In this document: positions 34,489 through 54,814 of the stretch, one piece after another
Layout of the letters: each line of letters opens with the position of its first letter
Numbering within the stretch: the stretch's first letter is position 1
Origin: an uncultured virus (IMG/VR IMGVR_UViG_3300020048_000030)
Lineage: Duplodnaviria; Heunggongvirae; Uroviricota; Caudoviricetes
Length of the DNA: 64,000 bases
Virus record (IMG/VR): IMGVR_UViG_3300020048_000030
Reading direction: 5' to 3' (one strand)
Notes under the pieces: model-generated
Told to the model about the DNA's origin: nothing
The model's database searches: none
What the model saw: only the letters and a program-made list of their open reading frames with translations
Made by a program: the position numbers and the translations under genes

Positions 34489-34493
34489 CATAT

Positions 34494-34655: not shown

Positions 34656-34661
34656 TAATTT

Positions 34662-35771: not shown

Positions 35772-35783
35772 CAGTAAAAATAC

Positions 35784-35867: not shown

Positions 35868-35870
35868 TAT

Positions 35871-35943
35871 TCCTTCATAGCTCAATTGGCAGAGTAAGAG
35901 ATTCTTAATCTTTGGGTTCAGGGTTCGATTCCCTGTGAGGGAA
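35871..35943 (+). tRNA. tRNA-Lys(CTT)
   Basis: AGAGA-TTCTTAA-TCTTT. Confidence 0.88.
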
Positions 35944-36561
35944 CTAATTTTTTTGGACTATTAGATGTAATAAATTAGATGGGTCTTTTTCAAATGAATA
36001 AGCTTTTTTAAATTCTTCTTTAGAATAAACAATTTTAAAAGTTTCAGATAGTACATCTAACCAAGTTTCTTTATCATAAGATACTTTACCAGTAATGACA
36101 TTACCTGTATTAGAAGTTTTTACCAATATGTAAAGATATCCATTATCATTTAATATTCTGTTTATATCAGATAAAACTTTTACAACTTCATCCATAACAA
36201 AATAATGGAGAGCAAGTCTAGCAAATACCAAATCAAAAGAATTATTAGGAAATGGAAATTTTTTTAATGTATCATGAACAACCCAAGTATAATCAGGTTG
36301 TTTTTCTTTCATTGTATCAATTGCTAAATCTGATATGTCAGTACCATAAACATCAAACCCTTTATCAATAAAATATTCTGAATAGATACCATCACCAATA
36401 GATATATCTAATATTTTTGAATTTTGTGGTATTAATTTTATTAATTGATTTACATTTTGTAAATCAATATTATCTTTTGGGATAATACCTTTATTAACTT
36501 TATCAATGAAATCATTCCATAATGAAACAGATTCAAAGGTTTTAAAGTTTTTAATTTTCAT
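35944..36561 (-). CDS. class I SAM-dependent methyltransferase
   Basis: ILDISIGDG, GTDIS, FPNNSFDLVF, RILNDNG. Confidence 0.85.
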   Translation of the reverse strand: MKIKNFKTFESVSLWNDFIDKVNKGIIPKDNIDLQNVNQLIKLIPQNSKILDISIGDGIYSEYFIDKGFDVYGTDISDLAIDTMKEKQPDYTWVVHDTLKKFPFPNNSFDLVFARLALHYFVMDEVVKVLSDINRILNDNGYLYILVKTSNTGNVITGKVSYDKETWLDVLSETFKIVYSKEEFKKAYSFEKDPSNLLHLIVQKN

Positions 36562-36631
36562 AAATAATTTTTTATTTTATATATAAAATATGAAATCACA
36601 TTACTTTAATATATAGAAATAAAAAATACCA

Positions 36632-37525
36632 ATGATAATAATAAGGAATTATGATGATATGTTATTAGAAAGATATGGATATAATAATATTGCAAAAGAA
36701 ATATCAAATAAAATAATAGATTTAATAAATTATAATTTAGGAAAACTCATTTTAAATAAGAGTATTACATTAAATTCATCATTAGGAAAAATTTCAGAAA
36801 TAGATTTTATTGAGGATATTATAAATATTAAATTATCTAATAGAACATATGGAAATGTAAATCCAAAATCAACCATAAATGAATCTGATAGTATTTATAA
36901 TATGACTATAAATCTTGAATTAATATTATCACCAATTGAATTAAAAGCAAAAAGATTAATACATAATGACATAATACATACAGTTGAACATGAATCATTA
37001 CATATAATAGAAGGATATCTTACAAATTTAAATAACAAATCTTTTGCAAAATCTTGGGATATGGGAAGTGAATTACAAGATTTACAAAATAAATATAAAT
37101 TAGATGATAATTGGCAAGAAATATCACATTTTATTTATTTATCATTACCTCATGAAATGAGAGCGAGATTACAACAATTAAATTCTAAAATAAAAATGAT
37201 GGGTTTAAGAGGAATATATTATGTACAAGGGTATATTAAAAGGACTAAAATTTTTAAGGATGTAGAATTTTTATCAGAAATAGATGAAATAGTGACATTA
37301 AATAAATTAAAAAAAGACAAAAATTATAATGATATTATAAAAGATTTTAGTTTATTATTTTTAAAAAATAGTGGAATTGATTATGAAAATAATTTTAAAG
37401 ATTATTTTAAAACTATTAAATTTAAAAATAAAAAAATACTTTCAAAACTACTTAAAACATCATATAATTTTGAAAGTTATGGACATGAAGACATTATTAT
37501 AGATTATAGTAAATATATAAAATAA
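36632..37525 (+). CDS. putative zinc metallopeptidase-like protein
   Basis: HESLH (HExxH) with downstream E in HEMRAR. Confidence 0.55.
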   Translation: MIIIRNYDDMLLERYGYNNIAKEISNKIIDLINYNLGKLILNKSITLNSSLGKISEIDFIEDIINIKLSNRTYGNVNPKSTINESDSIYNMTINLELILSPIELKAKRLIHNDIIHTVEHESLHIIEGYLTNLNNKSFAKSWDMGSELQDLQNKYKLDDNWQEISHFIYLSLPHEMRARLQQLNSKIKMMGLRGIYYVQGYIKRTKIFKDVEFLSEIDEIVTLNKLKKDKNYNDIIKDFSLLFLKNSGIDYENNFKDYFKTIKFKNKKILSKLLKTSYNFESYGHEDIIIDYSKYIK

Positions 37526-37690
37526 TTAAAAATCTTTTTATTAGGTTTTGACTACAACCCTTATTATATATACAAAAGATATATTTTTTAAAATTTTTGA
37601 GAAAAAATTAAACTTTTATATAAATATATACAATCAATAAAATTATTAACAAAAAATAAAAAAAATTAAAAAAAGGTTTAGACCTTAACT

Positions 37691-38896
37691 ATGGAAAAAC
37701 AAATTATTCTATCTGAGACTTCTGCTAATGTAGAAGAATCAGAACCACCGGTTTCACAGAAACCATCAGTCTTTAATAGACAAACCGAAGATGATAAGGT
37801 TATAGAATTCATCACAAACAACTACCCAAATACAACAATAGAACAATGGAATTCATGGCAGTGGCAGATAAAGAATAGTATTACCAAGTCAGATGATTTA
37901 ATTAATATATTAGGGAAAAAAAGAGAAAATATAATTCTCAATATTCCAGAAAACCACTTACCTTTTAGAATAACACCTTACTTTGCTTCTTTATTAGATA
38001 GATTAGAAAGTAATCACCCATTGTATAAAACAATTATTCCAACTTTAAATGAATTAGATGTTTATGAAGGAGAATCACCAGATTCTTTAAATGAAGAACA
38101 TAGTTCACCAGTTAAGAATATTGTACATAGATATCCAGATAGAGCATTATTTTTAGTTACTGCTTTTTGTAGTACATATTGTAGATTTTGTACAAGAAGT
38201 TATATGGTAGCTAAACAAAATTCTATTAAAGTATCACATAAAGATTGGGAAGATGCATTCAACTATTTAGAAAACCATACTGAAATTAGGGATGTTATAG
38301 TATCTGGTGGAGATCCACTTACATTATCTGATGAACAATTAGAATATATATTAAGTAGATTAAGAAGTATAGAACATATTGAAATCATTAGAATTGGCAC
38401 AAAAATTCCAGCTGTATTACCTCAGAGAATCACACCGGAATTAGTGAATATGTTAAAAAAATATCATCCACTATATTTAAGTGTACACTTTACTCATCCT
38501 GATGAATTCAGTAAAGAAACTAAAAGAGCTTGTAATATGTTAGTTGACAATGGAATAGTATTAAGAAGTCAGACTGTATTATTAAAAGATATAAATGATA
38601 ATGTAGAAACTATGAAAAAATTAATGCATAATTTATTATTAAATAGAATTGTACCATATTATTTGTATCAGATGGATAAAATTCCGGGTGCTAAAATATT
38701 TGAAACTACAATTGATAAGGGTATTGAAATAATAAGAGGGTTGCGTGGATTCACATCTGGTTATGCAATTCCACAATATATTGTTGATACAGCAATTGGA
38801 AAAATGCCAATAAGTCCAAATTACATAAAAGATATAAATGATGGAATTGTTACTTTTGAAAATTATGAAGGAAAATATATATCACAATATCATTAA
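37691..38896 (+). CDS. kamA: Lysine 2,3-aminomutase family radical SAM enzyme
   Basis: WQWQIKN, VHRYPDRAL, CSTYCRFCTR, SGGDPL, RIGTKIP, PYYLYQ, LRGFTSGYAIP. Confidence 0.9.
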   Translation: MEKQIILSETSANVEESEPPVSQKPSVFNRQTEDDKVIEFITNNYPNTTIEQWNSWQWQIKNSITKSDDLINILGKKRENIILNIPENHLPFRITPYFASLLDRLESNHPLYKTIIPTLNELDVYEGESPDSLNEEHSSPVKNIVHRYPDRALFLVTAFCSTYCRFCTRSYMVAKQNSIKVSHKDWEDAFNYLENHTEIRDVIVSGGDPLTLSDEQLEYILSRLRSIEHIEIIRIGTKIPAVLPQRITPELVNMLKKYHPLYLSVHFTHPDEFSKETKRACNMLVDNGIVLRSQTVLLKDINDNVETMKKLMHNLLLNRIVPYYLYQMDKIPGAKIFETTIDKGIEIIRGLRGFTSGYAIPQYIVDTAIGKMPISPNYIKDINDGIVTFENYEGKYISQYH

Positions 38897-38915
38897 GAAA
38901 TAAAAATACTTTAAG

Positions 38916-38950
38916 AAAAAGTAGAAGATTTATTTCTTCTACTTTTTTTT
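38916..38950 (+). terminator. intrinsic terminator after kamA
   Basis: AGTAGAAGA-loop-TCTTCTACT-T run. Confidence 0.8.
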
Positions 38951-38992
38951 ATTAAAAATATTTATTATCTTTGTAAAAATAATATTTTATAA

Positions 38993-39373
38993 ATGGTAGA
39001 AAAAATATTAAAATTAGGTGTAAAAAAAGGTTTGTGGACTGATACATACCAACATTCATGGAGAATTAATTATAGTGGTGTTAGTCCAAATATGGATAAG
39101 TGTATTAATATTATTATAAATATTGATGGTGTTGATATTACTTGTTTTACTCATGATGGGTACAAAAGAGGATATTTACATTATTTGTATTATAATAGTA
39201 TTGACCGATTTGATAATGGTAATATAATGAAATATAACATATATGTGCCAATAGATGATGTATTAGATGGAAAACCATTTTATACAACAAATAAAATAGA
39301 AAGAAGAAAATTAAAAATTGAAAAATTAATAAAAATAAAAAATGAAAGATTACAGAATACTATTTCCATCTGA
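38993..39373 (+). CDS. hypothetical protein with C-terminal RxxKI motif
   Basis: ERRKLKIEKL; follows a TATCTTTG element at 38966. Confidence 0.65.
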   Translation: MVEKILKLGVKKGLWTDTYQHSWRINYSGVSPNMDKCINIIINIDGVDITCFTHDGYKRGYLHYLYYNSIDRFDNGNIMKYNIYVPIDDVLDGKPFYTTNKIERRKLKIEKLIKIKNERLQNTISI

Positions 39374-40211
39374 ACCTTTTGAACAAAAGGTTGTTGATTC
39401 TGCTTATACTGAAGAGTATAATGTATGTAAACTTATGGGAATTAAGACACATCTTTTTGATTATGAAGAATTAGTTGAAAATGATAAATTAGTATCTGAT
39501 ATATTTTTTGATGATAGTGCCACTCTTATTTATAGGGGATGGATGTTAAAACCTGAACAATATAGTAAGTTGTATAATAAGATATTACATAAGACAAATG
39601 GATATGTAACTTTATTAAATTCACCGGAACAATATAAGAATTGTCATTGTTTTCCATTTGTATATAAAGATATAAAAGATTATACACCTAAAATATTAGT
39701 ATTTGATAATTATGATAATTTAGTTGATTTATTTTGTATATTACCATTATTAGATTTTGATTTTTTCTTAAAAGATTATGTTAAATCAATTAAGACAAAT
39801 TTAGGTGTAGAAAAAATAAATAGAAAAATAAGTACAAGTGATTTATTTAAGAAGATACAAGAATTTGTTACAGAAAGAGGTAATTTATTTACAGGTGGTA
39901 TTGTATTTAAAGAATATATTAATTTAAAAAAGATAAATGAAATAACAAATGAATGGAGGGCATTTTATTTATATGGTAAACTTATAGATTTAAGTAATAA
40001 TTCAAGTATAGATATATCTAAAGGAGAACAACCACCTATTGAATTTGTAAATAGTGTTGGTAAAGTATTATCTGAAAAAAGTAATTTTTTTACAATTGAT
40101 TTTGCATTAACTGAAGATAATATTTGGAAAATTATAGAAACTGGTGATGGTGGAGTATCAGGTTTATCACCACATTCTAATGTAATGGGATTTTATAATA
40201 AACTATTTTAA
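39342..40211 (+). CDS. ATP-grasp domain protein (R2K-like)
   Basis: YRGWML, FFLKDYVKS, NEWRAF, FFTIDFA, IIETGDGGVSG. Confidence 0.8.
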   Translation: MKDYRILFPSEPFEQKVVDSAYTEEYNVCKLMGIKTHLFDYEELVENDKLVSDIFFDDSATLIYRGWMLKPEQYSKLYNKILHKTNGYVTLLNSPEQYKNCHCFPFVYKDIKDYTPKILVFDNYDNLVDLFCILPLLDFDFFLKDYVKSIKTNLGVEKINRKISTSDLFKKIQEFVTERGNLFTGGIVFKEYINLKKINEITNEWRAFYLYGKLIDLSNNSSIDISKGEQPPIEFVNSVGKVLSEKSNFFTIDFALTEDNIWKIIETGDGGVSGLSPHSNVMGFYNKLF

Positions 40212-40212
40212 A

Positions 40213-40389
40213 ATATTTACTAATGGTAATTTAAAACAAGGTGAATATGCAAGGGGTGGATTTGAATTACATTTTGACAATGATTGGGAAGAAGTATCAG
40301 TAATAAATGAAAATGGTGGACATGCAATTTTAATTAATCCAGATTTTGAAGAAATTTTTAGTGAAATACAATATAAAAATGAAAAATAA
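40213..40389 (+). pseudogene. start-less open 3' gene remnant
   Basis: Open frame IFTNGNLKQGEYARGGFELHFDNDWEE..NEK* with no ATG/GTG/TTG start. Confidence 0.35.
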
Positions 40390-40669
40390 CTATTGGAAAT
40401 TTATAAAATTAAAAATTAATAATAAAAATATTGATGATACTTTTCATAAGTATATTTTTAATAAAAATAGATTAAATGCATTATCAGGTTATCTTTCCCT
40501 ATTAACTAGATTAAATTATCTTGAAAAATTAGATAAAGGAAATTATAGAATAATTAAAAAAATCCCTAATGGATTATCTACAACATTAGCGAATAAAATG
40601 TTAACTGATAAAACTTATCAGAGAATTATAAAATTAGAAAAAATTAAATTAAACATATTGAATAAATAA
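40379..40669 (+). CDS. hypothetical protein with C-terminal RxxKL motif
   Basis: Probable ATG at 40379; QRIIKLEKI. Confidence 0.6.
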   Translation: MKNNYWKFIKLKINNKNIDDTFHKYIFNKNRLNALSGYLSLLTRLNYLEKLDKGNYRIIKKIPNGLSTTLANKMLTDKTYQRIIKLEKIKLNILNK

Positions 40670-40704
40670 TGATATAATAGTTTTAAAAATAAATAAAAAT
40701 AAAA

Positions 40705-40998
40705 ATGGAAAAGATAGAAACAAAATTAAAAACTTGTGATGCAGTACATATAGATGTACAATGTGAAAGAAATGATCCAGAAGATATTGAATGTGGTGGA
40801 CCAGTAATGTTAGGATATTCATTTTATATTTCAAAATCAGATAACTTATCAGAATATAAACAATTTATAAAAGATTGTCTTGAAAAATATAATAGACCTT
40901 TTATAAATATGGTAATTACTATGAAAAATAGACTTAATGTTAAATATCTTAATGATAAAAAACAAATTGAAGAAACAATTAGAATTGAATCAATATAA
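40705..40998 (+). CDS. hypothetical protein
   Basis: 97-aa ORF. Confidence 0.6.
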   Translation: MEKIETKLKTCDAVHIDVQCERNDPEDIECGGPVMLGYSFYISKSDNLSEYKQFIKDCLEKYNRPFINMVITMKNRLNVKYLNDKKQIEETIRIESI

Positions 40999-41003
40999 TT
41001 GAT

Positions 41004-41147
41004 ATGTCAATATATAAATTTATTCCCAAACTTGATTATACTTCTTTATACCCTACTACAATGAGGGATTTAAATGATGATTATTTTAAACTATTTAATA
41101 GAAGAAGAAAATTAAATAAAATTATTAATAGTATGAACAATGTATAA
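41004..41147 (+). CDS. 47-aa microprotein
   Basis: MSIYKFIPKLDYTSLYPTTMRDLNDDYFKLFNRRRKLNKIINSMNNV (manual translation); fills the gap between genes. Confidence 0.55.
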   Translation: MSIYKFIPKLDYTSLYPTTMRDLNDDYFKLFNRRRKLNKIINSMNNV

Positions 41148-41334
41148 TTATATTTATTGTAATAAATGTGAAGGATTTTATTTAAATTGGTCAGTAGATT
41201 TTGGTAATATGGATAAAGCTTGTCCTAAATGTTTCACTAAAGATATTAAAGAATTTAAGTCTGATAGTTTTGCTGATATGGCTCAGATAGAAAGACAATA
41301 TAAAATTAATAAAATAAATATAGATTTAATATAA
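41140..41334 (+). CDS. small zinc-ribbon protein
   Basis: CNKC..CPKC; ends ERQYKINKI. Confidence 0.65.
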   Translation: MYNYIYCNKCEGFYLNWSVDFGNMDKACPKCFTKDIKEFKSDSFADMAQIERQYKINKINIDLI

Positions 41335-41410
41335 TAATAACAATTAATTAACTATCAAATGATAGTATTTATATGATTTTTATTATATATAAGAATAAAA
41401 AATAAAAAAT

Positions 41411-41716
41411 ATGATTCTATTAAATTTTGTATCAACATTAATAATGGTTGTATCAATGACATTAACACCATCTAATACTATAAATGGATATATTGTAGAT
41501 AATAATACAAATGAAACATTAGTAGGTGTTAAAATTACAGTAAATGATAGCATTTCTACATATACTAATCTTGATGGATACTTTGAAATAAATAATATAT
41601 CAGACACTATAAATATGAAAATTGAATACATATCTTATGAAACAATAGATATAAAAGTATCTGGTGATGAATATAAAAATAATATAAAAAAACTTCAAAA
41701 TAATTTGGTAGATTAA
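41411..41716 (+). CDS. secreted carboxypeptidase-regulatory-like (CarbopepD_reg_2-type) domain protein
   Basis: Signal peptide; INGYIVD..TNETLVGVKI..TNLDGYF..YISYET pattern of the N-terminal domain of Bacteroidota TonB-dependent receptors. Confidence 0.75.
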   Translation: MILLNFVSTLIMVVSMTLTPSNTINGYIVDNNTNETLVGVKITVNDSISTYTNLDGYFEINNISDTINMKIEYISYETIDIKVSGDEYKNNIKKLQNNLVD

Positions 41717-41840
41717 AAATCTTGTATTATCTTTGTATCATAATTAGAAAAAAATGACTTTTTTAATTAAATATATACTTTTATTAAACTTTTGAAAAAA
41801 CTTTGTATATAAGAATAAAATTAAATAATAAACAAAACAA

Positions 41841-41977
41841 ATGAACTTAAACTTAAATATAACATTGAATTCTTCATTAGAGAATACAGATAGTGATACA
41901 AAATCATTAACCGGAATTGATATGTAAATAAGTTATACATAATATCAAAAACCCGGTTTGAAAAAATCGGGTTTTTT
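41841..41977 (+). promoter_or_regulatory. leader peptide (28 aa, 41841-41927) plus terminator: attenuator-like element before tRNA cluster 2
   Basis: MNLNLNITLNSSLENTDSDTKSLTGIDM; leader AACCGG is complementary to CCGGTT in the terminator 5' arm. Confidence 0.55.
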
Positions 41978-42260
41978 GTTTTATAAAAAGTTTTTTGAAA
42001 ATAAATTTGGTGGAGTCGAAAATAAGTTTTATCTTTGTACTCTATTAAAAAGGAAAAAGTTCCTTGACATGTTGGACTATTAAAAAATAAGTAAATTTAT
42101 TTTATAATAAAATGTAGCATTGGTAGTATGCATCATCTAAGGAGTGAATCGTACCATTCAATCTAAAAACATTATGGTAACAGTAATGTAAAAAGTAAAC
42201 AATGGGTAAATATGGATTCTTTGGTGTAACAACACATTATTTTAAAATAAATTGAAAAAT

Positions 42261-42443
42261 AAGAGAGGATATATCCTTAATTATTGTCTATATACCAGAA
42301 ATGGGAGAGTACCTAGTAGATTTATCTACAATTAACATATATAGGTTCGAAGAGAGACATTACTTGAGATGATGGTTGCAGAAATAGAAGTATGCATTTA
42401 TGTAAGAACATCCGATATAGACTTTAACTAAGGATACCCTCTT
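42261..42443 (+). ncRNA. unknown structured RNA (~180 nt)
   Basis: Nested end pairing AGAG/CTCT, TATCCTTA/TAAGGATA, GTCTATAT/ATATAGAC. Confidence 0.5.
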
Positions 42444-42450
42444 TTTATAT

Positions 42451-42533
42451 GCTGCGTTATGCAAGTGGCCAAAGCTAACAGGTTTTCACCCTGTTCTTGT
42501 ATTAGTTCGTGGGTTCGAATCCCACACGCAGTT
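42451..42533 (+). tRNA. tRNA-Glu(TTC), enlarged variable region
   Basis: ACAGG-TTTTCAC-CCTGT. Confidence 0.82.
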
Positions 42534-42549
42534 CTAAGTTTAAAATATA

Positions 42550-42626
42550 TGCGCGGTGACTGGAGTGGTCCCAGCCGAGAATCATAATCTCGATAGACGT
42601 AAGTTCGATCCTTACCCGCGCTACCA
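42550..42626 (+). tRNA. tRNA-Met(CAT), probably initiator-type
   Basis: 1:72 mismatch, CGAGA-ATCATAA-TCTCG, encoded CCA. Confidence 0.75.
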
Positions 42627-42699
42627 AAATCTTCAACTATTTTTAGTTTGATTATATTTTCCGTTATTAAATTTTTATATATACAATTAAAAACTAATT

Positions 42700-43590
42700 A
42701 TGAATAAATGTTTAAGTTGTGGTAAAGATGTAAAAAATAAATATTGTAATGTTTCTTGTCAAAATACACATCAAAATTCAAGTAGAGCTAATAAAAATTT
42801 TGGAGAATTTAAATCCTTTATAATAACTTGTCATAAATGTGAAAAAGAATTTGAAGTGATAGAAAGAGAAAAATTACATCCACAAAAAGAAAAATACTAT
42901 TGTTCAAGAAGTTGTGCAAATAGTCATATTAGAACAGAAGAAAGTAAAAGAAAAGTAAGTGAATCTTTATTAAGAGGATTAAAAATAATTACAATTTGTA
43001 AAAAATGTGGTAAAGATATAGAACATTTAAAAAGTAGAGAACAGATGTATTGTTCTATTGATTGTGCTAAAGAAGCAAAATTTGTAGGTATAAGAATAAT
43101 TACTGAATGTAAAAATTGTGGTAAAGAAATAAATGATTTAAAAAGTAAAAATAGAAGTTTTTGTTCTACATCTTGTAATACTATTTATCAAAATAAAAAT
43201 ACAGATAGATGTAAGAAAGGTGGATTAAAATCTTGTAAAGTACAAAAAGAAATAAGAAGAAGTAAAAATGAGATATATTTATCTGAACTATGTATGGATT
43301 ATTTTAATAATGTATTAATTAATGAACAAATGTTTAATGGTTGGGATGCAGATATTATTTTAAATGACCAAAAAATTGCAATATTATGGAATGGTAAATG
43401 GCATTATAAAAAAATTAAAAAAGAACATTCTGTTGAACAAGTACAAAATAGAGATAGAATTAAAATAAAAGAAATTGAAAAATTAGGGTATGTACCATAT
43501 ATTATTAAAGATATGGGAAAATTTAATAAAGAATTTGTAGAAAATGAATTTGAAAAATTAAAAATAATATATGGGGGTGTAGCTGATTAG
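42700..43590 (+). CDS. zinc-finger-repeat PD-(D/E)XK/Vsr-like endonuclease
   Basis: Four CxxC..YCSxxC repeats; WDADII..AILWNGKWH..D. Confidence 0.75.
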   Translation: MNKCLSCGKDVKNKYCNVSCQNTHQNSSRANKNFGEFKSFIITCHKCEKEFEVIEREKLHPQKEKYYCSRSCANSHIRTEESKRKVSESLLRGLKIITICKKCGKDIEHLKSREQMYCSIDCAKEAKFVGIRIITECKNCGKEINDLKSKNRSFCSTSCNTIYQNKNTDRCKKGGLKSCKVQKEIRRSKNEIYLSELCMDYFNNVLINEQMFNGWDADIILNDQKIAILWNGKWHYKKIKKEHSVEQVQNRDRIKIKEIEKLGYVPYIIKDMGKFNKEFVENEFEKLKIIYGGVAD

Positions 43591-43662
43591 GTTTTAGCTG
43601 CAGACTGTTAATCTGTGAATGAAAACATTGAAATAAAGTAGGTTCGAATCCTTCCTCCCCCG
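43573..43662 (+). tRNA. tRNA-Asn(GTT) with long variable region
   Basis: GCAGA-CTGTTAA-TCTGT, GGTTCGAATCC. Confidence 0.72.
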
Positions 43663-43668
43663 CAAACT

Positions 43669-43751
43669 GGATGTATGATTAAGGTGTAAAAACTTTAAAA
43701 ATCTTTAAGTTGGTTTGATCACCAAAATAGGTTAAAATCCTATTACATCCT
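43669..43751 (+). ncRNA. degenerate tRNA-like RNA
   Basis: GGATGTA/TACATCC acceptor, ATAGG-TTAAAAT-CCTAT T-arm, no readable 7-nt anticodon loop. Confidence 0.45.
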
Positions 43752-43758
43752 TTTAAAT

Positions 43759-43838
43759 GCCTCTGTGGATTATGCAAACCGGCACAGCCAACTGGCTTAA
43801 ACCCAGATCTTTTGAGGGTTCGACTCCCTCCAGGGGTA
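43759..43838 (+). tRNA. tRNA-Leu(TAA), short variable loop and enlarged D region
   Basis: GCCTCTG/CAGGGGT; CTGG-CTTAAAC-CCAG. Confidence 0.65.
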
Positions 43839-43913
43839 CAAAATTTTAATTAATTACCCATCGGAAGGTGGGAAATACATCTGAAAATAATTATATAATA
43901 AAAGCAGATGTTT

Positions 43914-43989
43914 TCCGATATAACTCAGTTGGCTAGAGTACCCTCACAAGCTTTGGGGGGTGTCACAGGTTCAAATCCTGTTATCGGTA
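43914..43989 (+). tRNA. tRNA, anticodon undetermined (9-nt loop ACAAGCTTT)
   Basis: Canonical D and T arms; CCCTC/GGGGG anticodon stem. Confidence 0.55.
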
Positions 43990-44004
43990 CAAAATAAAAC
44001 AATT

Positions 44005-44283
44005 ATGATGAAAAAAGAGATAAAGAATGTGTCTAATTGGGATATCAAAGACAAAGTAAAATTAATTGCTGGAACTATTGTTGAAAATGATGATCAAAAT
44101 GGTTTTAATTATTTTGAAGACCTTATTCCTTTTTATTTTACTAATGATAATGATCTTCTGTTAATAAAGGAAAAAATGAATAACTTGATTAATTTACTTA
44201 ATGAAGCAAAAAAACAAAGTTCAGTAGAATTTGAAAAAATTCAAGATATGGACTTTGAAGATGAAATCTGGTATAAAATATAG
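44005..44283 (+). CDS. hypothetical protein
   Basis: Likely start MMKKEIK at 44005; the upstream part of the tracked ORF overlaps a tRNA. Confidence 0.65.
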   Translation: MMKKEIKNVSNWDIKDKVKLIAGTIVENDDQNGFNYFEDLIPFYFTNDNDLLLIKEKMNNLINLLNEAKKQSSVEFEKIQDMDFEDEIWYKI

Positions 44284-44347
44284 GATTTTTCTATTTATCC
44301 TAGTCTTAAATAGAATGGTGGTGTAGTTGAAGTAAAATTCAGCCCCA

Positions 44348-44422
44348 ATCAGTTTTCTTGGTTTCTGATAAAAAATCAAGATTTTAAAATATTTCAGTTT
44401 TCTTGGTTTCTGTCAAAAATCA
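44348..44422 (+). repeat. two copies of TCAGTTTTCTTGGTTTCTG-(A-rich)-TCA
   Basis: Copies start at ~44349 and 44394. Confidence 0.7.
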
Positions 44423-44427
44423 TACTT

Positions 44428-44503
44428 AGGCTATAGGTCAAACGATTAAGATGTCGCCCTGTCACGGCGCACGGAGCGGGTTTAACTCCCGTATAGCCTG
44501 CCA
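44428..44503 (+). tRNA. tRNA-Asp(GTC)
   Basis: CGCC-CTGTCAC-GGCG, G73, encoded CCA. Confidence 0.85.
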
Positions 44504-44595
44504 AATCTAACTTGTAGAATTTTTAGTAATTTACAAGTTAGATTTCATTTAGACAATTTTTATTTAATATATAAATAAAAAATAATCAAATTATT

Positions 44596-44826
44596 ATGAA
44601 TAAGATTTTAAATAGAATATTATCAAGAATTCCTTGGACTTATATAATAATATTAATAATAGCATTAGTAATTACTTTAGTTGCTAAAATGTTTATATCT
44701 ACACCATATTTAGTTGTATTATTTGGTGTATTTTTTACTATTGGTCTTGGATTTACTTTATTTATATGGTTAAGAGAACTTTATTGGGTTATAACAAAAA
44801 AAGATAATTATGATAAGAAAAATTAA
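44596..44826 (+). CDS. small membrane protein (2 TM)
   Basis: Two hydrophobic stretches. Confidence 0.65.
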   Translation: MNKILNRILSRIPWTYIIILIIALVITLVAKMFISTPYLVVLFGVFFTIGLGFTLFIWLRELYWVITKKDNYDKKN

Positions 44827-45325
44827 AAAAAATTGGAGAAGACCTTTTCCTTGGTTTGAATTTATTCCTATCATATTTAAAAAGAACAAATCATTTTCAA
44901 TTGTAAAAGATTTTGAATTTACACCATCTACAATGTATCATTTTGATGACGCAGACCAATTTGATGTGAATAAATTATTTGGTTTTAGTATAGGGATGCA
45001 TCACACTAATTCATTTAGATTTGGGTGGAGACCAAGTAAAGATTTATTAAAAATGGAAATTGGTGCATATGAATATCATAATAAAGTAAGGGTTTTTATT
45101 TTACCTTTATGTGAAGTTGAAATAGGTAAAAATTATAAGTATGAAATAAATTATTTATCTGATAAAAAACAAGTTCAGTATAAAATTGTAGAAGACAATA
45201 ATACACTTGTTACTCATATAAGTAATGTTGATGTTAAAAAATATTGGGGTTATAAATTAGGTTTATATTTTGGTGGTAATAAAAAAGCACCACATGATAT
45301 GATATTCTTCCAAACAAATTTTTAA
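44810..45325 (+). CDS. hypothetical beta-sandwich protein
   Basis: Aromatic-rich; NKLFGF..SFRFGWR..YFGGN. Confidence 0.65.
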   Translation: MIRKIKKNWRRPFPWFEFIPIIFKKNKSFSIVKDFEFTPSTMYHFDDADQFDVNKLFGFSIGMHHTNSFRFGWRPSKDLLKMEIGAYEYHNKVRVFILPLCEVEIGKNYKYEINYLSDKKQVQYKIVEDNNTLVTHISNVDVKKYWGYKLGLYFGGNKKAPHDMIFFQTNF

Positions 45326-45342
45326 AAATAAAATTATTAAAT

Positions 45343-45415
45343 GCTTCCTTAACTCAGTTGGTAGAGTGATACTCTTGTAAAGTATATGTCATTAGTTCGA
45401 TCCTAATAGGAAGCT
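45343..45415 (+). tRNA. tRNA-Thr(TGT)
   Basis: ATACT-CTTGTAA-AGTAT. Confidence 0.9.
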
Positions 45416-45417
45416 CA

Positions 45418-45557
45418 AAGTATATGTAAATCCTTAGATGGGTTTTTGGATAAGAACAGGAGTACAACTATTCCTATTGGGTAGTAGATACTTTTGTTCA
45501 TGACAGTAGAATTTCTATTACAATCAAAATATCAAATTGGTTTTTAAACATATACTT
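45418..45557 (+). ncRNA. unknown structured RNA (~140 nt) between tRNAs
   Basis: AAGTATATGT/ACATATACTT ends; GAACAGGAGTA/TACTTTTGTTC inner stem. Confidence 0.5.
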
Positions 45558-45562
45558 CATTT

Positions 45563-45651
45563 GGAAATTTGCTAGAGCCAGGTTTATTAGGTTTGTCTTG
45601 AAAACAAAAGTACAGGAAACTGTACCGGGGGTTCGAATCCCTCAATTTCCG
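45563..45651 (+). tRNA. tRNA-Ser(TGA)
   Basis: TTTGT-CTTGAAA-ACAAA; variable arm GTACAG-GAAA-CTGTAC. Confidence 0.9.
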
Positions 45652-45726
45652 CACCAAAAACGCGACAGGTTATTAAAGTTTGGAAAATCCAACACCTAAA
45701 TGGGGGGCTGGTCATGTCCATATAAT

Positions 45727-45815
45727 GGAGAAGTAAGCATAATTGGTACTGCAGCGGTTTGCTAAACCGTTCATCGATTAAAATTGGTGTGAAGGTTCGA
45801 GTCCTTTTTTCTCCG
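45727..45815 (+). tRNA. tRNA-Ser(GCT)
   Basis: GCGGT-TTGCTAA-ACCGT; long variable arm. Confidence 0.88.
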
Positions 45816-45896
45816 CAAATTTTTTTAAATAAATTTGTATAGTTCAATAAATAGTATTATCTTTGCATTATTACTAATCACTTAACACATTACATT

Positions 45897-49472: not shown

Positions 49473-49811
49473 ATGTTAAATCAAACTATATTAGATGAAT
49501 ATATTTTTTATCTTAAAAAAGTTAAGTATAAAGGTAATATTCAAGATATAAAATTAGAATATTGTAAAGATAATATTGGTAATTATATTTATCTTGTACA
49601 GATTAAGATTAAAAAATCACAAAAGAATAAAGGTTATGGTTCATCAGTACTTACAGAAGTTATTGAACTTGCGAATAAACATAATCTTAGAATTAAACTT
49701 TGGGCAACAGATGTATTTGGTGCTGATTTGAAAAGATTAATTGAATTCTATAAAAGATTTGGATTTGTTTTATTGGAAGAAAATAAAATGGTTTATTATC
49801 CAAAAGAATAA
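49473..49811 (+). CDS. GNAT-family acetyltransferase
   Basis: QKNKGYGSSVL..LIEFYKRFGF. Confidence 0.8.
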   Translation: MLNQTILDEYIFYLKKVKYKGNIQDIKLEYCKDNIGNYIYLVQIKIKKSQKNKGYGSSVLTEVIELANKHNLRIKLWATDVFGADLKRLIEFYKRFGFVLLEENKMVYYPKE

Positions 49812-49816
49812 TGTTA

Positions 49817-49888
49817 GGATCTTTAGCTCAGGGGTAGAGCGCGACACTCATAATGTCAGGGTCGGGGGTTCAAATCCCTCAAGGTCCA
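49817..49888 (+). tRNA. tRNA-CAT (Ile2 or elongator Met)
   Basis: GACA-CTCATAA-TGTC; canonical arms. Confidence 0.85.
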
Positions 49889-49937
49889 CAAATAATAAGG
49901 TGTTTTAATAGTAAATAATTTTTATTATAACTAAAAT

Positions 49938-50090
49938 ATGAAAAATCACAGATTATGTACACATTGTTTTAATCTTATGTCAGGTTGTAAATATGGTTAT
50001 AATTTAAAGATTTGTGAACCTAAATTAATGACTAAAACATTTTGTCCTATATGTTATAATATAAAAGGAAATTGTTCTTGTAAAAAATAA
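49938..50090 (+). CDS. 50-aa Cys-rich microprotein
   Basis: CTHC..C..C..CPIC..CSC (manual translation). Confidence 0.5.
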   Translation: MKNHRLCTHCFNLMSGCKYGYNLKICEPKLMTKTFCPICYNIKGNCSCKK

Positions 50091-50094
50091 AAAT

Positions 50095-50316
50095 ATGAAA
50101 GATATAAAAGAAGAAATATTTCATTTCATATCAACACACGAATGTATCATATCTAATGAAATGCATAAAAGAGATGAGAATATTAATGTTAGATTTACAA
50201 CATTTGGTAATAAAGCAGGATGTAGATCAGTTTATGATGTCATTAGTCTATTAGATGAAGATACAAAAGTGAAAGTAATTGAAATGATGAAAAATAAAAG
50301 AGTTTCAGATAATTAA
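50095..50316 (+). CDS. hypothetical protein
   Basis: 73-aa ORF. Confidence 0.6.
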   Translation: MKDIKEEIFHFISTHECIISNEMHKRDENINVRFTTFGNKAGCRSVYDVISLLDEDTKVKVIEMMKNKRVSDN

Positions 50317-50344
50317 AAGATTTTTGGAAAATAATTACAAAAAA

Positions 50345-50843
50345 TTTGGAAAATAAATTAAACTTTTGTAATTTTGTTTCCTAAATTAAAAACATCTTTT
50401 GAAAAAAGATAAGGTTCTTTAAAATGTTGAGTTAAATAGTTGAAGATTAAACAACTAAAAGATTTTTTGAAAATAAGTGTCAAAAAATTTGGAAAATGAA
50501 AAAAGATGTTGTATCTTTGTAAGACAATTGGAAGATAAAATATCTGATTGAAAAAAGAAAAAAGTTTTTAAAAAATTTGGAAATTAAATTAAACTTTTAT
50601 ATCTTTGTTGAATATATAAATCACCTTTTAAAAATGGTGAAAAAAATAAAGAAAAAAGTTTTTAAAAAATTTGGAAATTAAATTAAACTTTTATATCTTT
50701 GTTGAATATAAAAATAGTTCTTTAAAATACTGAAATGATAATAAAAAAGATTTTTTGAAAATAAGTGTCAAAAAATTTGGAAAATCAAAAAAGATGTTGT
50801 ATCTTTGTAAAGTATTTAAAATGTAAAAATAGTTCTTTAAAAT
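50345..50843 (+). promoter_or_regulatory. array of five tandem Bacteroidota-type promoters with boxA-like GTTCTTTAAAAT motifs
   Basis: TTTGG at 50345, 50488, 50576, 50670 and 50776, each followed 24 nt later by TAnnTTTG. GTTCTTTAAAAT at ~50414, 50717 and 50832. Confidence 0.82.
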
Positions 50844-50845
50844 AT

Positions 50846-51474
50846 TGGGATAAAATTAGAGCGAAAGCGAAGAAGAGTAAAGTAAACTGTTCTCTGTCTG
50901 AAAATAGGGTCAAGGTTTGTGAAAATCTTGTGAAAATATCAGATATAAAAATCACTGATACGGATGTTGAAGTTGATTGTTTGAAATCGTAAAAAGTAAA
51001 CAGAATTCTAATTTAGGTCGTTTGTAGAGAATACATTGTAAAATGGAAATCGTAAAACATAAATTCTAAAAAAGATGTTGAAATTGTAGAAAGTAAAGAT
51101 TTGAAACCGTAGGGAGTAAGTTAAGTTGTTATATAAGTATAACAATGTTTACCTAAATGGGTAAAGTGGTTGAAACCATAGGTAGTAAAGCGAAAAATTT
51201 GAAACTGAAAGGAGTAAAATGATTGAAATCAAGGGAAGTAGGGAAACTGAAACCAAGGAAAGTAAAAGGATTGAAACTGAAAGGAGTAAAATGATTGAAA
51301 TCATAGGGAGTAAGTTTTTGAAACTGAAGGGAGTAATAAAGTTGTCATACTCAATATGACAATATTTATCTGAAAAGATAAAGGTGGTTCAAACCGAAAG
51401 TAGTAAAGTTACTGAAATCAAAGAAAGTAAACAACAGTTTTGAAATTCGTAGTGAGTAGCTCTTTTTTATCTCA
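50846..51474 (+). ncRNA. novel ~630-nt RNA with ~13-14 TGAAA-N8-AGTA hairpin units
   Basis: Ends pair (TGGGATAAAA..GAGC / GCTC..TTTTATCTCA; AAACTGTT/AACAGTTT); repeat units at about 24-nt spacing. Confidence 0.72.
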
Positions 51475-51480
51475 TTTTAT

Positions 51481-51646
51481 GGTCTGATCGTCTAGCGGTC
51501 AAAATTATAACAAAGACTTTATATGTTGCTCAGCAGTAAATAAAGTAGTTATAAAGGACAAAGCAAACTTATGATAGGTATGGAAATACAAGGAAGTTGA
51601 GAAAAATTGTAAAAGCTTTACATAGGTTCGAATCCTGTTCAGACTA
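51481..51646 (+). ncRNA. tRNA-scaffold RNA with large insertions in the D and anticodon loops
   Basis: GGTCTGA/TCAGACT acceptor, GTCT/GGAC D-stem, AAAGC/GCTTT stem, ATAGG-TTCGAAT-CCTGT T-arm. Confidence 0.65.
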
Positions 51647-51647
51647 C

Positions 51648-51685
51648 AAAAATGGAAAAAAGTGAAGTTTTTGTATAAATATATA
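51648..51685 (+). promoter_or_regulatory. phage late-type promoter upstream of GOLLD-like RNA 1
   Basis: AAAAATGGAAAAAAGTGA..TAAATATATA. Confidence 0.6.
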
Positions 51686-51739
51686 CAATCACCAACTTTT
51701 GAAAAAATGTTCTTTGATAATATTGAAAAGATAATATAT

Positions 51740-52689
51740 GGTTCTAATCCTTATAGACCTTACTTGAAAGGGTAAAAGTCTGAGGATGAAACGCAAGAGT
51801 TGAACCTAAGTAGTATTAATCATCGTGTGTGATGATATCTTTCTTCGGAAAGAGCAAATAATGTAAGGTGACTTACAAAAGGGGGAGTCTCTCAACTTCC
51901 CGCCAGGTCTTCGGATTTGGTTACAGCACACAAACTTCGTCTTTGTTGGCTACCCGCCAACAGATTCATCCGCAAGGACTGGATATAAGGAGTAAGTAAT
52001 GAGTACATGGTTCTTTGGTAAGAATAAGTCTTGTAAGCCCCCAGCAATGGGTAAGGAGCAAGATGAATAAGGGGTGACACCCACACCATTGCGTGTCAAC
52101 ATTATGAATTTGAAAGATAAGAAGTAGGTAATCTGTCAGAGTGTTGATAGCACAAAGGCTAATTATCAATACAAATGGTGAAAGGAGAAGTCCTGGAATT
52201 GTGAAGTATGGTACAGTAGGAATAATCAACCGAAACGCATGTTTAGTTAAGTATTTTGTATGACAAAATCTTATGAAGCTTTGTCTGAGCGCTAAACCGA
52301 GACCCTGATATTAGGGTTAAAATATCAACTATCTTAAAAATTAATATGATAATTAAAATTTGATAAAAAGCAAAGACTCAGACAAGTATATGACGAAAGT
52401 CGTTTAAGTCTTGACATCTTCGGATGAATCAAGATCACGGAAACTCGCAAGGTAGAAGTGTTTTATGGAAAGAAGCATCTAAGAGGTTAGCGCCTCTGAA
52501 TGGCTCGCAAGGTCAAGAGAATTTTGAACATAGAGTAATCATATACTGATAGTGGAAAAGCTACCACTTAAAATAAAGCAACGTCGCTGATAGACTTCCA
52601 TGAGGAAGTGGATAAGTGTAGAACCTTGGCCGCAAACTAAGGGTAATGACACGAAGGTATCGGTACTAAACCTGTAATCTCAAGGTTTT
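51740..52689 (+). ncRNA. GOLLD-like giant structured RNA (copy 1, ~950 nt)
   Basis: GC-elevated, ORF-poor, many GNRA/UUCG hairpins (GCAA, TTCG, GAAA). 3' domain CTCGCAAGG..GGAAA..GAGTA..GTGGATAAG..GTAATCTC resembles GOLLD as I recall it; not searched. Confidence 0.68.
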
Positions 52690-52694
52690 AAAAT

Positions 52695-52778
52695 AGTTCA
52701 GTCGTCTATTTTGGAGTACTTAATTTAAGTCAAGACACAATAACAATTGGAGATATGGTTCAAAACCTATCTGAACTA
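52695..52778 (+). ncRNA. tRNA-like RNA with truncated anticodon arm and D-loop hairpin insert
   Basis: AGTTCAG/CTGAACT acceptor; GTCT/AGAC; CAAT-AACA-ATTG; GGTTCAAAACC. Confidence 0.55.
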
Positions 52779-52956
52779 CAAAATCTGATATGTCAAAATA
52801 ACTGATTTAGTAGTAAGTGAACCTGCTTTACAAAAGTTCACCCTCTAAGAACATCATTCACTCTTAGGTTGATGGTTGAAATGGGTAAGGAATACCATAC
52901 ATTCCAATAAAAACCACTATGTTTAAAACCCCTTAAAAGGTATAGTAGTAATTTGT

Positions 52957-53021
52957 AATCAAGTAGCTCAGTGTTGAGAGCGGTCGAAAGACAGGTCAGT
53001 GGTTCAGCGCCATTCTTGAAA
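52957..53021 (+). ncRNA. mini tRNA-like RNA with anticodon arm replaced by GTC-GAAA-GAC
   Basis: TCAAG/CTTGA, TAGCTCAG..GAGC D-arm, AGTGG-TTCAGCG-CCATT T-arm. Confidence 0.6.
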
Positions 53022-53094
53022 ACAAATAATTATGTTTAAAACCCTTCAGAAAGGCATAGTAGTGGTTTGTTTTTATTGTTCTTTGAATAATGAT

Positions 53095-53993
53095 ATTTCC
53101 TATGCTTGAATAGGAATCCGTAAGGAAGAGATAATATATCGTAAGATATAAAAAGGATAGACATCCATTTGTTTATTCACCTTAAATCCCAATTTAAGGC
53201 CAAATCAAGCAACTCCTTGCTCACCTTTACTGAAAAAGGGTTTCTCTTCGGAGGAAATAAGAGGAAGATAAGTTTTTAGGAACTTTGGAAAGTATGGAAT
53301 TTCTTACTTGCCTGTAAAGGGAACAAGGGAAATTTAATAAAGAACTATGGTGGTTCATATCCTAAATTACCAACCTTATCGTCTCAGAATTGTAAAAGGA
53401 AGATAGTAAAATAGTCCAAGTGATGCAAAAGTAAGGGCGACTATCAGTATTAAGGTTTTGAAAAGAATCTGAAATACCGCACAAGTAGGTTTAGCAGACT
53501 GAAAATGTAAACTAAGGGTCGGATTTTTTTCTTCAAAAGAGAATGAAACGGTGAACAGGCACTTAGTAATGGAAAAACAAAATTAGCTCAGTTGGCAGAG
53601 CAATTGGCTTCTAACCAATAGGTCATAGGTTCAATTCCTATAATTTGTAAAAAAGCGAAGTCCTGTTCAACATCAGTAAGAAAAGACGCTTAATTCTTGA
53701 CATCTCCGGATGAATCAAGAGCAACTGAAACTCGCAAGGTGAATGTTGTTTGATGGAAAATCACACTTAGGGATTAATTATCTCAAACTGTCCGCAAGAT
53801 AGGAGGCCGATTGAACATCGAGTAGTACTGGTGGTAATAAAGTTAGTCAATCTTTAAAATGGCAGCGTTGCTTGACTAAACTATGATTGAAGGGAAACCT
53901 TAATTATAGTGGATAAGTAAAGAACATGAAGAATAGCATCTTTATGATAATGTTACGAAGGTGTCAAGTGAAAACCAGTAGTCTCATGGTTTT
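53095..53993 (+). ncRNA. GOLLD-like giant structured RNA (copy 2, ~900 nt) with embedded tRNA
   Basis: 3' ~350 nt collinear with copy 1 (TCTTGACATCTyCGGATGAATCAAGA, GAAACTCGCAAGGT, TTGAACAT.GAGTA, GTGGATAAGT, ACGAAGGT, GTArTCTCA.GGTTTT). Confidence 0.68.
53577..53649 (+). tRNA. tRNA-Arg(TCT), nested in GOLLD-like copy 2
   Basis: TAGCTCAGTTGGCAGAGC; ATTGG-CTTCTAA-CCAAT; GGTTCAATTCC. Confidence 0.82.
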
Positions 53994-54000
53994 AAATTTT

Positions 54001-54036
54001 AAACCCCTTAATCTTCCGAGGATTAAGGGGTTTTTT
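54001..54036 (+). terminator. intrinsic terminator closing the ncRNA operon
   Basis: AAACCCCTTAATC-loop-GATTAAGGGGTTT-T run. Confidence 0.88.
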
Positions 54037-54037
54037 G

Positions 54038-54814
54038 TTATCTTAAAGTTTTAATTCTTTCTGTTTGATATTTCATTATATCAATATCTTTATTTTCTTT
54101 TAATATATCAATAATTTTAATAAACATATTTGTAGTTATTCTACAATCTGATAATGCATCATGATAATTTATCATACTTATATTAAGAGCTGGTCCAATC
54201 TTTGACATTGAAGAACTTATTAATCCAAAATCTCTTTCAGATGTTCCTATTGTTCCAATCATTTTTTTATAACTTTCATCTGTTTCTGCTAATTTTTGTA
54301 TTAGTGGAATATAATATAATTGAATGATTTGTTTGGTGTCTATTACTTCTTTTTCATATTTCCTACCATATCTACCATTTAACATATTCATATCAAATGC
54401 AGCGTTCTGTATGACAAATAAAGGGTTATTTTGCTCATCTATCCAATCATAAAATTCAGATAATACCATTTGTTCATCATAATATTTAGTGTCTTTTGTT
54501 CCATAGTGATTAAATGATAATACTTTTTTAATTCTTGAACCGGGTTCATTCATTTTTACTTTAGTTTCATCAGTTAATTTTATCTTTTTATTAAAAGAAT
54601 CCTTTTCTGTGAACTCATTTAAATCAAAATTATAAGTATTTGATATGGCAGCAACTTGTGTTAATTGTTCTTTCTTATGTCCACCTAATCCAGTAGTTTC
54701 AGTATCAATAAATATCCAATCATTAACTGATTTACTTTCAATCCAATTTAAGAATTGATTAATAGATTTATACCATAACTTATGTTCAAGTAAAAAATCA
54801 GTATATTTAATCAT
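54038..54814 (-). CDS. DEDDh 3'-5' exonuclease (DnaQ-like)
   Basis: IDTETTG, NAAFD, IDT, HDALSD. Confidence 0.88.
   Translation of the reverse strand: MIKYTDFLLEHKLWYKSINQFLNWIESKSVNDWIFIDTETTGLGGHKKEQLTQVAAISNTYNFDLNEFTEKDSFNKKIKLTDETKVKMNEPGSRIKKVLSFNHYGTKDTKYYDEQMVLSEFYDWIDEQNNPLFVIQNAAFDMNMLNGRYGRKYEKEVIDTKQIIQLYYIPLIQKLAETDESYKKMIGTIGTSERDFGLISSSMSKIGPALNISMINYHDALSDCRITTNMFIKIIDILKENKDIDIMKYQTERIKTLR

Follow-up and report, generated by a model that had tools for sequence, protein, structure and literature searches.

What are the two large RNA genes that a tailed phage appears to carry side by side, and why would it carry two of them? The question is raised by a stretch of 64,000 nucleotides (nt) from an uncultured virus of the class Caudoviricetes (IMG/VR record IMGVR_UViG_3300020048_000030; hereafter the window). 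A first-pass annotation made from its letters had proposed two paralogous GOLLD-like giant RNAs in tandem at 51740–53993, one of them hosting a tRNA-Arg(UCU). We find that two GOLLD genes lie head to tail on the + strand, within the tRNA and non-coding RNA island of the phage, and that both are genuine members of the family, complete in their 5' and 3' domains, rather than only GOLLD-like. To the identification of the locus as two complete GOLLD genes from different lineages we attach a probability of roughly 0.85, a figure that covers identity and completeness.

Identity and completeness of the two genes

The Rfam model of GOLLD (RF02032) represents only the 3' domain of the RNA. Rfam scans covered the whole window at gathering thresholds and the interval 50500–54600 permissively, with E up to 10. 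The first gene (GOLLD-1) is matched by RF02032 at 52241–52686 on the + strand with 168.2 bits (E 1.9e-45; model positions 1–416), above the gathering score of 150 bits, and this is the sole large-RNA match in the window at gathering thresholds. In the second gene (GOLLD-2) the permissive scan places the same model positions 1–416 at 53511–53990 on the + strand with 118.0 bits (E 1.3e-31), the alignment including a 73-nt tRNA insert and a longer hairpin P24. This score is below the gathering value, but as that value reflects curation and is no feature of the structure, we file GOLLD-2 as a divergent member of the family. Of the two models with which the first-pass annotation had proposed to search, GOLLD thus matches twice, and ROOL (RF03087) matches neither in the window at its gathering score nor in 50500–54600 at E up to 10; no other large-RNA family was matched in that interval at the same limit. 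The proposed tandem is also present in a second contig about 97% identical in DNA (L001), which keeps both copies (164.4 and 129.1 bits) together with the tRNA.

The 3' domains of the two copies are 56% identical and share the motifs L14 CAAAA, the CGCAA loops, GAGUA, GUGGAUAAG and a 3' GUAAUCUCA hairpin, the last hairpin of GOLLD-2 reading GUAGUCUCA. It had been noted before that the last ~350 nt of the copies are collinear and that their 5' halves diverge. The collinearity holds, but the collinear part is longer, about 445–480 nt as measured from the spans of the Rfam matches. The 5' halves are indeed divergent in sequence (47% identical, compared with 43.4 ± 2.7% in shuffled controls), yet several comparisons show that they are homologous. 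A profile of GOLLD-2 and its relative L039 matches GOLLD-1 at 51829–52185 with E 1.5e-10, conserved 5' motifs follow the same order across an alignment of 11 5' domains that includes both copies, and 19 base pairs of the 5' domain have changed on both sides between the copies. The reverse profile, built from the clade of GOLLD-1, gave no match to GOLLD-2 in the window at E up to 10. Each copy also has a counterpart of matching extent elsewhere, GOLLD-1 being homologous to the single GOLLD of the contig L009 over 51817–52690 and GOLLD-2 to the GOLLD of G001 from 53119 onwards.

Delimited by the Rfam match, by the homology to L009 and by RNA contigs, GOLLD-1 would extend over 51759–52689 on the + strand (~930 nt, with presumed exact ends). 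Its 5' domain would occupy 51759–52240 (482 nt), as judged from the alignment with ten other 5' domains of the same type and from the profile match, and its 3' domain 52241–52686. GOLLD-2, delimited by its Rfam match, the homology to G001 and RNA contigs, would cover 53111–53993 on the + strand (~880 nt), with a 5' domain at 53111–53510 (400 nt; alignment, consensus pairs and profile search) and a 3' domain at 53511–53990.

Consensus structures were obtained with RNAalifold, for the 3' domain from 68 distinct GOLLDs and for the 5' domain from the alignment of 11. Of the 112 consensus pairs in the 3' domain, 94 are canonical in GOLLD-1, 84 in GOLLD-2 and 71 in both, and between the copies the shared pairs carry 26 double and 8 single changes; when the 3' partner is slid by 1–3 columns, 17–27 shared pairs and 2–8 double changes are left. 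The 5' domain has 84 consensus pairs, canonical in GOLLD-1 at 80, in GOLLD-2 at 62 and in both at 59, and its 19 double changes compare with 2–5 in the slid control, which retains 15–22 shared pairs. The conserved helices of the 3' domain (P13 to P27) are thus retained in both copies through compensatory changes, and double changes above the slid controls are seen in the 5' domain as well.

The helix that had been pointed out in both copies is present and closes the linker J13/15. In GOLLD-1 (linker 52281–52385, + strand) it is formed by TTGTCTGAG at 52281–52289 and CTCAGACAA at 52377–52385, and in GOLLD-2 (linker 53552–53669, + strand) by TGAACAGG at 53552–53559 and CCTGTTCA at 53662–53669, giving 8 bp. 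It covaries across the 68 distinct GOLLDs (alignment columns 50–55 with 157–162; consensus GAGGCA/TGCCTC). The idea that the copies carry different cargo holds literally for the two linkers: A+T-rich 77 nt, in which ARAGORN finds no tRNA, in GOLLD-1, and tRNA-Arg(UCU) at 53577–53649 (+ strand), called both by ARAGORN and with the tRNA model of Rfam (70.2 bits), in GOLLD-2. The CCA end is not encoded, and one mismatch can be read by eye in the acceptor stem. This is the sole tRNA-Arg among the 17 tRNAs of the window, a count whose scope is these 64 kb and not the whole genome, and it reads AGA, which makes up 299 of the 363 Arg codons (82%) in 24 large open reading frames (ORFs).

In the wider group to which GOLLD-2 belongs, the linker frequently holds a tRNA. 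Besides the tRNA-Arg(UCU) retained in L001, these linker tRNAs comprise Arg(UCU) in L108, Lys(UUU) in L172 and L202, Leu in L095 and L055, an odd one in L194 and a poorly paired one with a CUA anticodon in L039; no linker tRNA was found in any of the six members of the clade of GOLLD-1. The ideas published for GOLLD tRNAs include encapsulation, the exposure of tethered tRNAs and 'inhibited storage', as put forward in the bioRxiv version of Kretsch et al. and in a review (PMC12990946).

Among the matches listed, parts of the locus occur in at least 20 public runs from 14 studies (aquatic, mat, freshwater, soil and sediment samples), seven of which are RNA libraries. Contigs from four metatranscriptome runs of four studies were aligned to the locus. 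They cover the two genes separately, GOLLD-1 at 51759–52580, 51747–52424, 51784–52434 and 51909–52652, one in each run, and GOLLD-2 at 53114–53988 (876 nt), at 53111–53984 (874 nt; a second study), at 53111–53719 and in smaller pieces, with the tRNA retained within GOLLD-2 contigs in three studies. GOLLD-2 contigs start at 53111–53114 in three studies and end at 53984–53988 in two; such coinciding ends, taken with no DNA run alongside, are a weak hint of true RNA ends. In run X9 sequencing-adaptor letters adjoin the contig at 51759. The contig ends of the two genes lie within about 20 nt of the 51740 and 53095–53993 given by the first-pass annotation. Since the contigs come without strand or true ends, and DNA may be present in RNA libraries, we consider expression of both GOLLDs likely, not proven. 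No contig among the longest pieces listed bridges the two genes. RNA-contig cover is near zero at 50300–50807, 51443–51696 and 53983–54100 and low on the spacer at 52713–53093, which we do not count as evidence. A joint from 53464 to 53651 in run X20 (depth 6.75, side 38) was considered as a trace of tRNA excision and rejected; it ends at the 3' border of the tRNA and most likely stems from a related GOLLD.

Ancestry and rarity of the pair

A tree of the 68 distinct GOLLD 3' domains, inferred with the linker columns removed, separates the two copies. GOLLD-1 belongs to a clade with L009, L146, L134 and L150 (Shimodaira–Hasegawa-like approximate likelihood-ratio test, SH-aLRT, 99), and GOLLD-2 groups with L039/G001, L172 and L095 (support 81–89). 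GOLLD-1 is 78% identical to the GOLLD of L009, and GOLLD-2 is closest to that of G001, at 58%. In L009, a related contig with 77% identity in the capsid protein, a single GOLLD is present over all 13.8 kb. The paralogy is old, each copy's lineage occurring singly in other phages. Because the copies fall in separate lineages and L009 holds only a GOLLD of the first type, the pair does not stem from a recent local duplication, but either from an old duplication with loss elsewhere or from a second acquisition.

The comparison with L001 further suggests that both genes are maintained. Substitutions per site amount to 0.019 in GOLLD-1 and 0.022 in GOLLD-2, to 0.029 in the spacer (plus 58 indel columns), and to 0.046 and 0.070 in the adjacent exonuclease and glycosyltransferase genes, respectively. 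Both RNAs look constrained, as they change more slowly than the neighbouring genes.

How unusual such a pair may be was assessed from three motif-pattern scans, two of IMG/VR and one of JGI metagenomes, which returned 264 loci (46, 99 and 119) in a sample biased toward GOLLDs with the chosen motifs. A profile search found the GOLLD 3' domain in 157 of them (39, 73 and 45), representing 127 distinct loci, and in the flanks retrieved around them, at most 3 kb long, a tandem pair is present in only one of these, the contig L001. Searching 20 virus records in full gave one GOLLD match each in seven and none in 13; five of the seven GOLLD-bearing records are 199–364 kb long, and four of these five are at least 90% complete. 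A separate pattern scan of genome contigs is uninformative on prophages, because GOLLD was found in none of its 120 loci. One locus with two pattern matches (L211/L230) was discarded as a further pair; it gave no GOLLD profile match and looks by eye like a repeat of protein-coding sequence that bears an ABC-ATPase signature. Tandem or hetero-oligomeric GOLLDs go unmentioned in the bioRxiv version of Kretsch et al., as do these and paralogous or two-copy GOLLDs in the review PMC12990946, and no title among the listed papers mentioning GOLLD concerns two copies, although an earlier report may exist. While the GOLLD family, its linker tRNAs and its setting in tRNA islands are already known, what is new here is a conserved arrangement of two divergent GOLLD genes in one phage, both of them represented in RNA libraries.

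Contact motifs and possible modes of assembly

The GOLLD cages whose structures were solved in 2025 are homo-oligomers, each built from one RNA, and a natural pair residing in one phage raises the question of whether its two RNAs would assemble with each other. The best reference is env-38 (RF02032; 833 nt; a 14-mer of D7 symmetry; Kretsch et al. 2025, PMC12286853), which shares with the present genes the two-domain build, the P13–P27 core, L14 CAAAA, the GC loop L21b, the two-base kissing pair of L20 with J13/15, a helix-closed linker pointing into the cage, and a phage or tRNA-island setting. It differs in being a single gene with a 42-nt linker devoid of a tRNA and with another type of 5' domain. 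The env-38 3' primer site was not found in 425 loci or in viral contigs, and because no env-38 surrogate turned up, the contacts were mapped by eye on the printed sequence; as a check, C580/U581, A447/A448, U617/C618 and G656/C657 fall on the stated letters.

The contact B6, in which L14 adenines enter P21b, has CAAAA in env-38 and in both copies. B7, between L20 and J13/15, is UC:GA in env-38 and GC:GC in both copies (L20 CGCAA with J13/15 AAGC), a covarying change. B9, the self-kissing GC of L21b, corresponds to a GGCA loop in env-38 and to CGCAA in both copies. The copies part at B8, the self-kissing dinucleotide of L21a. It is GC in env-38 and in GOLLD-1, whose hairpin P21a (52483–52496, + strand) has the loop UUAGCG of the common GC type, by eye equivalent to G656–C657 of env-38, whereas P21a of GOLLD-2 (53760–53774, + strand) has the loop UAAUU, devoid of G and C and containing the palindrome AAUU. 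They also part at B10, where L24 adenines enter P21. The env-38 hairpin has 17 nt and, by eye, an A-rich loop; P24 of GOLLD-1 is similarly short (52594–52609, + strand; 16 nt, 6-bp stem, loop AUGA, by eye equivalent to A763/A764 of env-38), and that of GOLLD-2 is long (53875–53905, + strand; 31 nt, GAAA tetraloop). In our reading the in-ring contact motifs are identical in both copies, and two of the three ring-to-ring contacts, those made by L21a and P24, differ between them.

PMC12286853 gives the L21a dinucleotide as GC or CG across the GOLLD family. In our set it is neither in only three of 68 distinct GOLLDs, namely GOLLD-2, its twin in L001 and the GOLLD of L050. The AAUU loop is a derived state in this phage, because the nearest relatives of GOLLD-2 (L039, L172 and L095) have GC or CG at this place. 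Short and long forms of P24 both occur across the family. That the AAUU loop arose because two GOLLDs share a cell was considered and is not required, because L050 combines an A/U-only loop with one GOLLD.

Other characterized relatives help to place these features. According to the review PMC12990946, the GOLLD of Streptococcus agalactiae, a 12-mer, belongs to the same family and makes the contacts L14–P21, L15–L20, L24 tetraloop–P21 and L21–L21. The GAAA tetraloop of P24 in GOLLD-2 fits the tetraloop type of contact. The S. agalactiae RNA differs in lacking P21b and several 5' helices and in being a single gene of a bacterial genome. The mycobacterial GOLLD (PMC6582537) is likewise found among many tRNA genes; an HNH endonuclease is encoded close by, and the linker J13/15 holds a tRNA or pseudo-tRNA. 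It differs from the present locus in that one copy is reported (more being possible) and that its pseudo-tRNA had no detected expression; here there are two genes and an intact tRNA-Arg. ROOL RNA (RF03087) is also a large cage-forming phage RNA encoded near tRNAs, with an unrelated sequence and fold.

By analogy with the 14-mer of env-38 and the 12-mer of S. agalactiae, each of the two GOLLD RNAs would fold by itself and form a protein-free cage of two rings with its linker directed into the cavity. As the linker points into the cavity in the solved cages, a GOLLD-2 cage would hold about a dozen tethered tRNAs reading AGA, and a GOLLD-1 cage only a short A+T-rich loop. We lean slightly towards two mainly separate homo-oligomeric cages, because the ring-to-ring contacts of L21a and P24 differ between the copies and ring-to-ring pairing should prefer like with like.

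Mixed cages, with some subunits carrying a tRNA and others not, had been envisaged by the first-pass annotation as hetero-oligomers. The identical in-ring motifs (L14 CAAAA, L20 CGCAA with J13/15 AAGC) and the identical L21b loop CGCAA are in keeping with mixing, as are the spacing of the genes, 420 nt apart, and their co-occurrence in the RNA libraries of four studies. Against this stand the self-kissing L21a dinucleotides, GC in one copy and AU (within AAUU) in the other, the unequal P24 hairpins of 16 and 31 nt, and the 47% identity of the 5' cap domains, which account for four of the ten bridges of env-38 (PMC12286853). Moreover, the two full-length GOLLDs of known structure do not have the same secondary-structure elements, as summarized in PMC12990946, and since they form a 12-mer and a 14-mer, unequal subunits may not close one ring. 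We therefore regard mixing as rather unlikely. Somewhat more conceivable, if still doubtful, is that GOLLD-2 is foremost a precursor or store of tRNA-Arg, from which RNase P and RNase Z would cut out the tRNA, either always or upon opening of the cage, while the 8-bp closing helix keeps the two GOLLD pieces together; this is compatible with the preferred reading. It is consistent with a functional-looking tRNA (70.2 bits) that is also the isoacceptor the phage needs most, with a closing helix that tightly flanks the tRNA and covaries across the family, with the several identities (Lys, Leu and Arg) of linker tRNAs in relatives of GOLLD-2, and with the 'inhibited storage' suggested for a mycobacterial GOLLD tRNA in PMC12990946. 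Excision fits less well with the RNA contigs of three studies that still contain the tRNA, and the embedded pseudo-tRNA of Mycobacterium aubagnense had no detected expression according to PMC6582537.

The genes could also be joined in one long precursor, transcribed from promoters further upstream, comprising both GOLLDs and the spacer and cut apart at tRNA-like elements. Compatible with this are the absence of a terminator-like site between the genes (the only such hairpin in 49500–54500 lies at 54001–54033 on the + strand, between GOLLD-2 and the convergent exonuclease gene), the cloverleaf-like element that begins 10 nt past GOLLD-1, and low-depth RNA contigs on the spacer at 52803–53068. 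We nevertheless hold it to be improbable: one degenerate copy of the motif GTTCTTTAAAATATTG lies upstream of GOLLD-1 (51710–51726) and another upstream of GOLLD-2 (53078–53093; also present ahead of the GOLLD of G001), both on the + strand, and the motif, possibly a promoter element, recurs ahead of further RNA units. In addition, the longest pieces listed include no bridging contig. That GOLLD-2 is a decaying duplicate devoid of a role of its own seems hardly credible. Its score below the Rfam gathering value and its fewer canonical pairs (84 compared with 94 of 112, and 62 compared with 80 of 84) could be taken as signs of decay, but it changes as slowly as GOLLD-1 and at a lower rate than the genes beside it, transitions make up 16 of its 19 substitutions relative to L001 (11 being A to G, by manual count), its tRNA is intact, full-length RNA contigs exist, and it represents a separate lineage, not a copy of GOLLD-1.

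Several points count against the identification of two complete GOLLD genes and the separate cages we favour for them. The score of GOLLD-2 lies under the 150 bits of the family both here and in L001 (118.0 and 129.1 bits, with E down to 3e-34). The consensus structures were built from alignments containing both copies, which biases the comparison with the slid controls towards the true register. The RNA contigs give no relative levels, in addition to being uninformative on strand and true ends and coming from libraries that may contain DNA. The mapping of the env-38 contacts was done by eye, not computed, and the 5' contacts B2–B5 are unmapped; for B4 (L12 with residues 251–257 in env-38) no counterpart was found, in that no 5-bp complement to the loop of the hairpin preceding P13 recurs at one alignment position in at least four of the 11 sequences. 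The A/U-only L21a loop of L050 accompanies a single GOLLD in a complete genome of 209 kb, and no experiment ties any GOLLD to a function.

The pair may serve as a natural test of what governs the choice of partner in RNA quaternary structure, and of whether a linker tRNA is cargo, store or precursor. Should its two RNAs assemble apart, the differences in L21a and P24 would offer a first natural 'specificity code' for RNA cages; should they mix, theirs would be the first hetero-oligomeric RNA cage from nature. A bolder version, which we regard as a long shot, would have two orthogonal RNA-only cages, one empty and one preloaded with about a dozen tethered tRNA-Arg reading most of the arginine codons of the phage, with the change of L21a from GC to AAUU and the longer P24 acting as an address code and with cage opening gating tRNA release. 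Were it true, the assembly state would determine how much of a limiting tRNA is available in the course of infection.

Surroundings of the two genes

The pair lies in a region (49811–54038) free of ORFs of at least 90 amino acids (aa), with a G+C content of 35.6% over the GOLLD stretch compared with 20–30% in the rest of the window. The window further encodes a major head protein, a prohead protease, a thymidylate synthase, a translation-factor-like protein and many HNH or homing endonucleases, at least eight ORFs of the latter kind being interleaved with tRNA genes. It also contains a transposase-like ORF (phrog_506) at 24643–25902 and a 3074-aa ORF at 6465–15689 on the − strand, for which no PHROG family was found at E up to 1e-5. 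As relatives of the head protein sit on IMG/VR contigs of up to 676 kb, we read the source as a probably large, uncultured and very A+T-rich tailed phage. GenBank phage records gave 43 matches, none with a query cover of 80% or more, and among the matches listed all but one are tRNA look-alikes.

The 17 tRNAs called by ARAGORN in the window compare with 15 tRNA matches of Rfam at gathering thresholds. Several ARAGORN tRNAs within 33210–45816 are unusually long (Trp 89 and 84 nt, Lys 87, Val 87, Glu 84 and Asn 91); tRNAs of these five identities normally have no long extra arm. In or beside the GOLLDs of relatives, ARAGORN made three calls with a CUA anticodon, labelled Pyl (L039 1567–1641, from G001; L095 5493–5565; L202 676–749). 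The one in the GOLLD linker of G001 was rejected as a suppressor tRNA, its anticodon stem pairing poorly when read by eye. If the CUA tRNAs are real, some of the related phages may read TAG as a sense codon.

Upstream of the pair, better copies of GTTCTTTAAAATATTG precede other RNA units at 33308, 47998, 50414, 50717 and 50832. Between 50320 and 50850 one can discern by eye five near-repeats of a pattern consisting of TTTG, about 20 bases and TAnnTTTG, three of them followed by GTTCTTTAAAAT(A/G)(T/C)TG. The pattern resembles promoters of the Bacteroidota type, which hints at a host from that group and at several stacked promoters before the RNA island.

An array of short repeats follows at 50867–51460, upstream of GOLLD-1, with at least 12 units, by eye, of UUGAAAY, 4–6 bases and RGGAGUAA; Tandem Repeats Finder (TRF) reports a period of 24 with 5.8 copies at 51199–51336. 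The array had no Rfam match in the permissive scan of 50500–54600, is about 77% identical in L001 and is covered by contigs from RNA libraries, that of run X9 having a depth of 59.8 and adaptor letters at 50867. It may represent an uncatalogued repeat RNA.

Pieces resembling tRNAs, with acceptor-like stems, a GGTTCRAATCC T-arm and odd or enlarged middles, flank GOLLD-1 and lie in the spacer (51488–51648, 52696–52779 and 52958–53020); neither ARAGORN nor Rfam called any of them. The piece at 52696–52779, starting 10 nt after GOLLD-1, folds as a four-arm cloverleaf with a z-score of only −1.5. Such pieces may be processing signals or dead tRNAs, and matching T-arm and acceptor pieces occur on either side of the GOLLD of L009. 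The piece at 52958–53020 is itself flanked by a direct repeat of about 40 nt (CTATGTTTAAAACCC...TAGTAGT) at 52918–52957 and 53032–53072, and the spacer of L001 carries an insertion of 58–59 nt at 52803.

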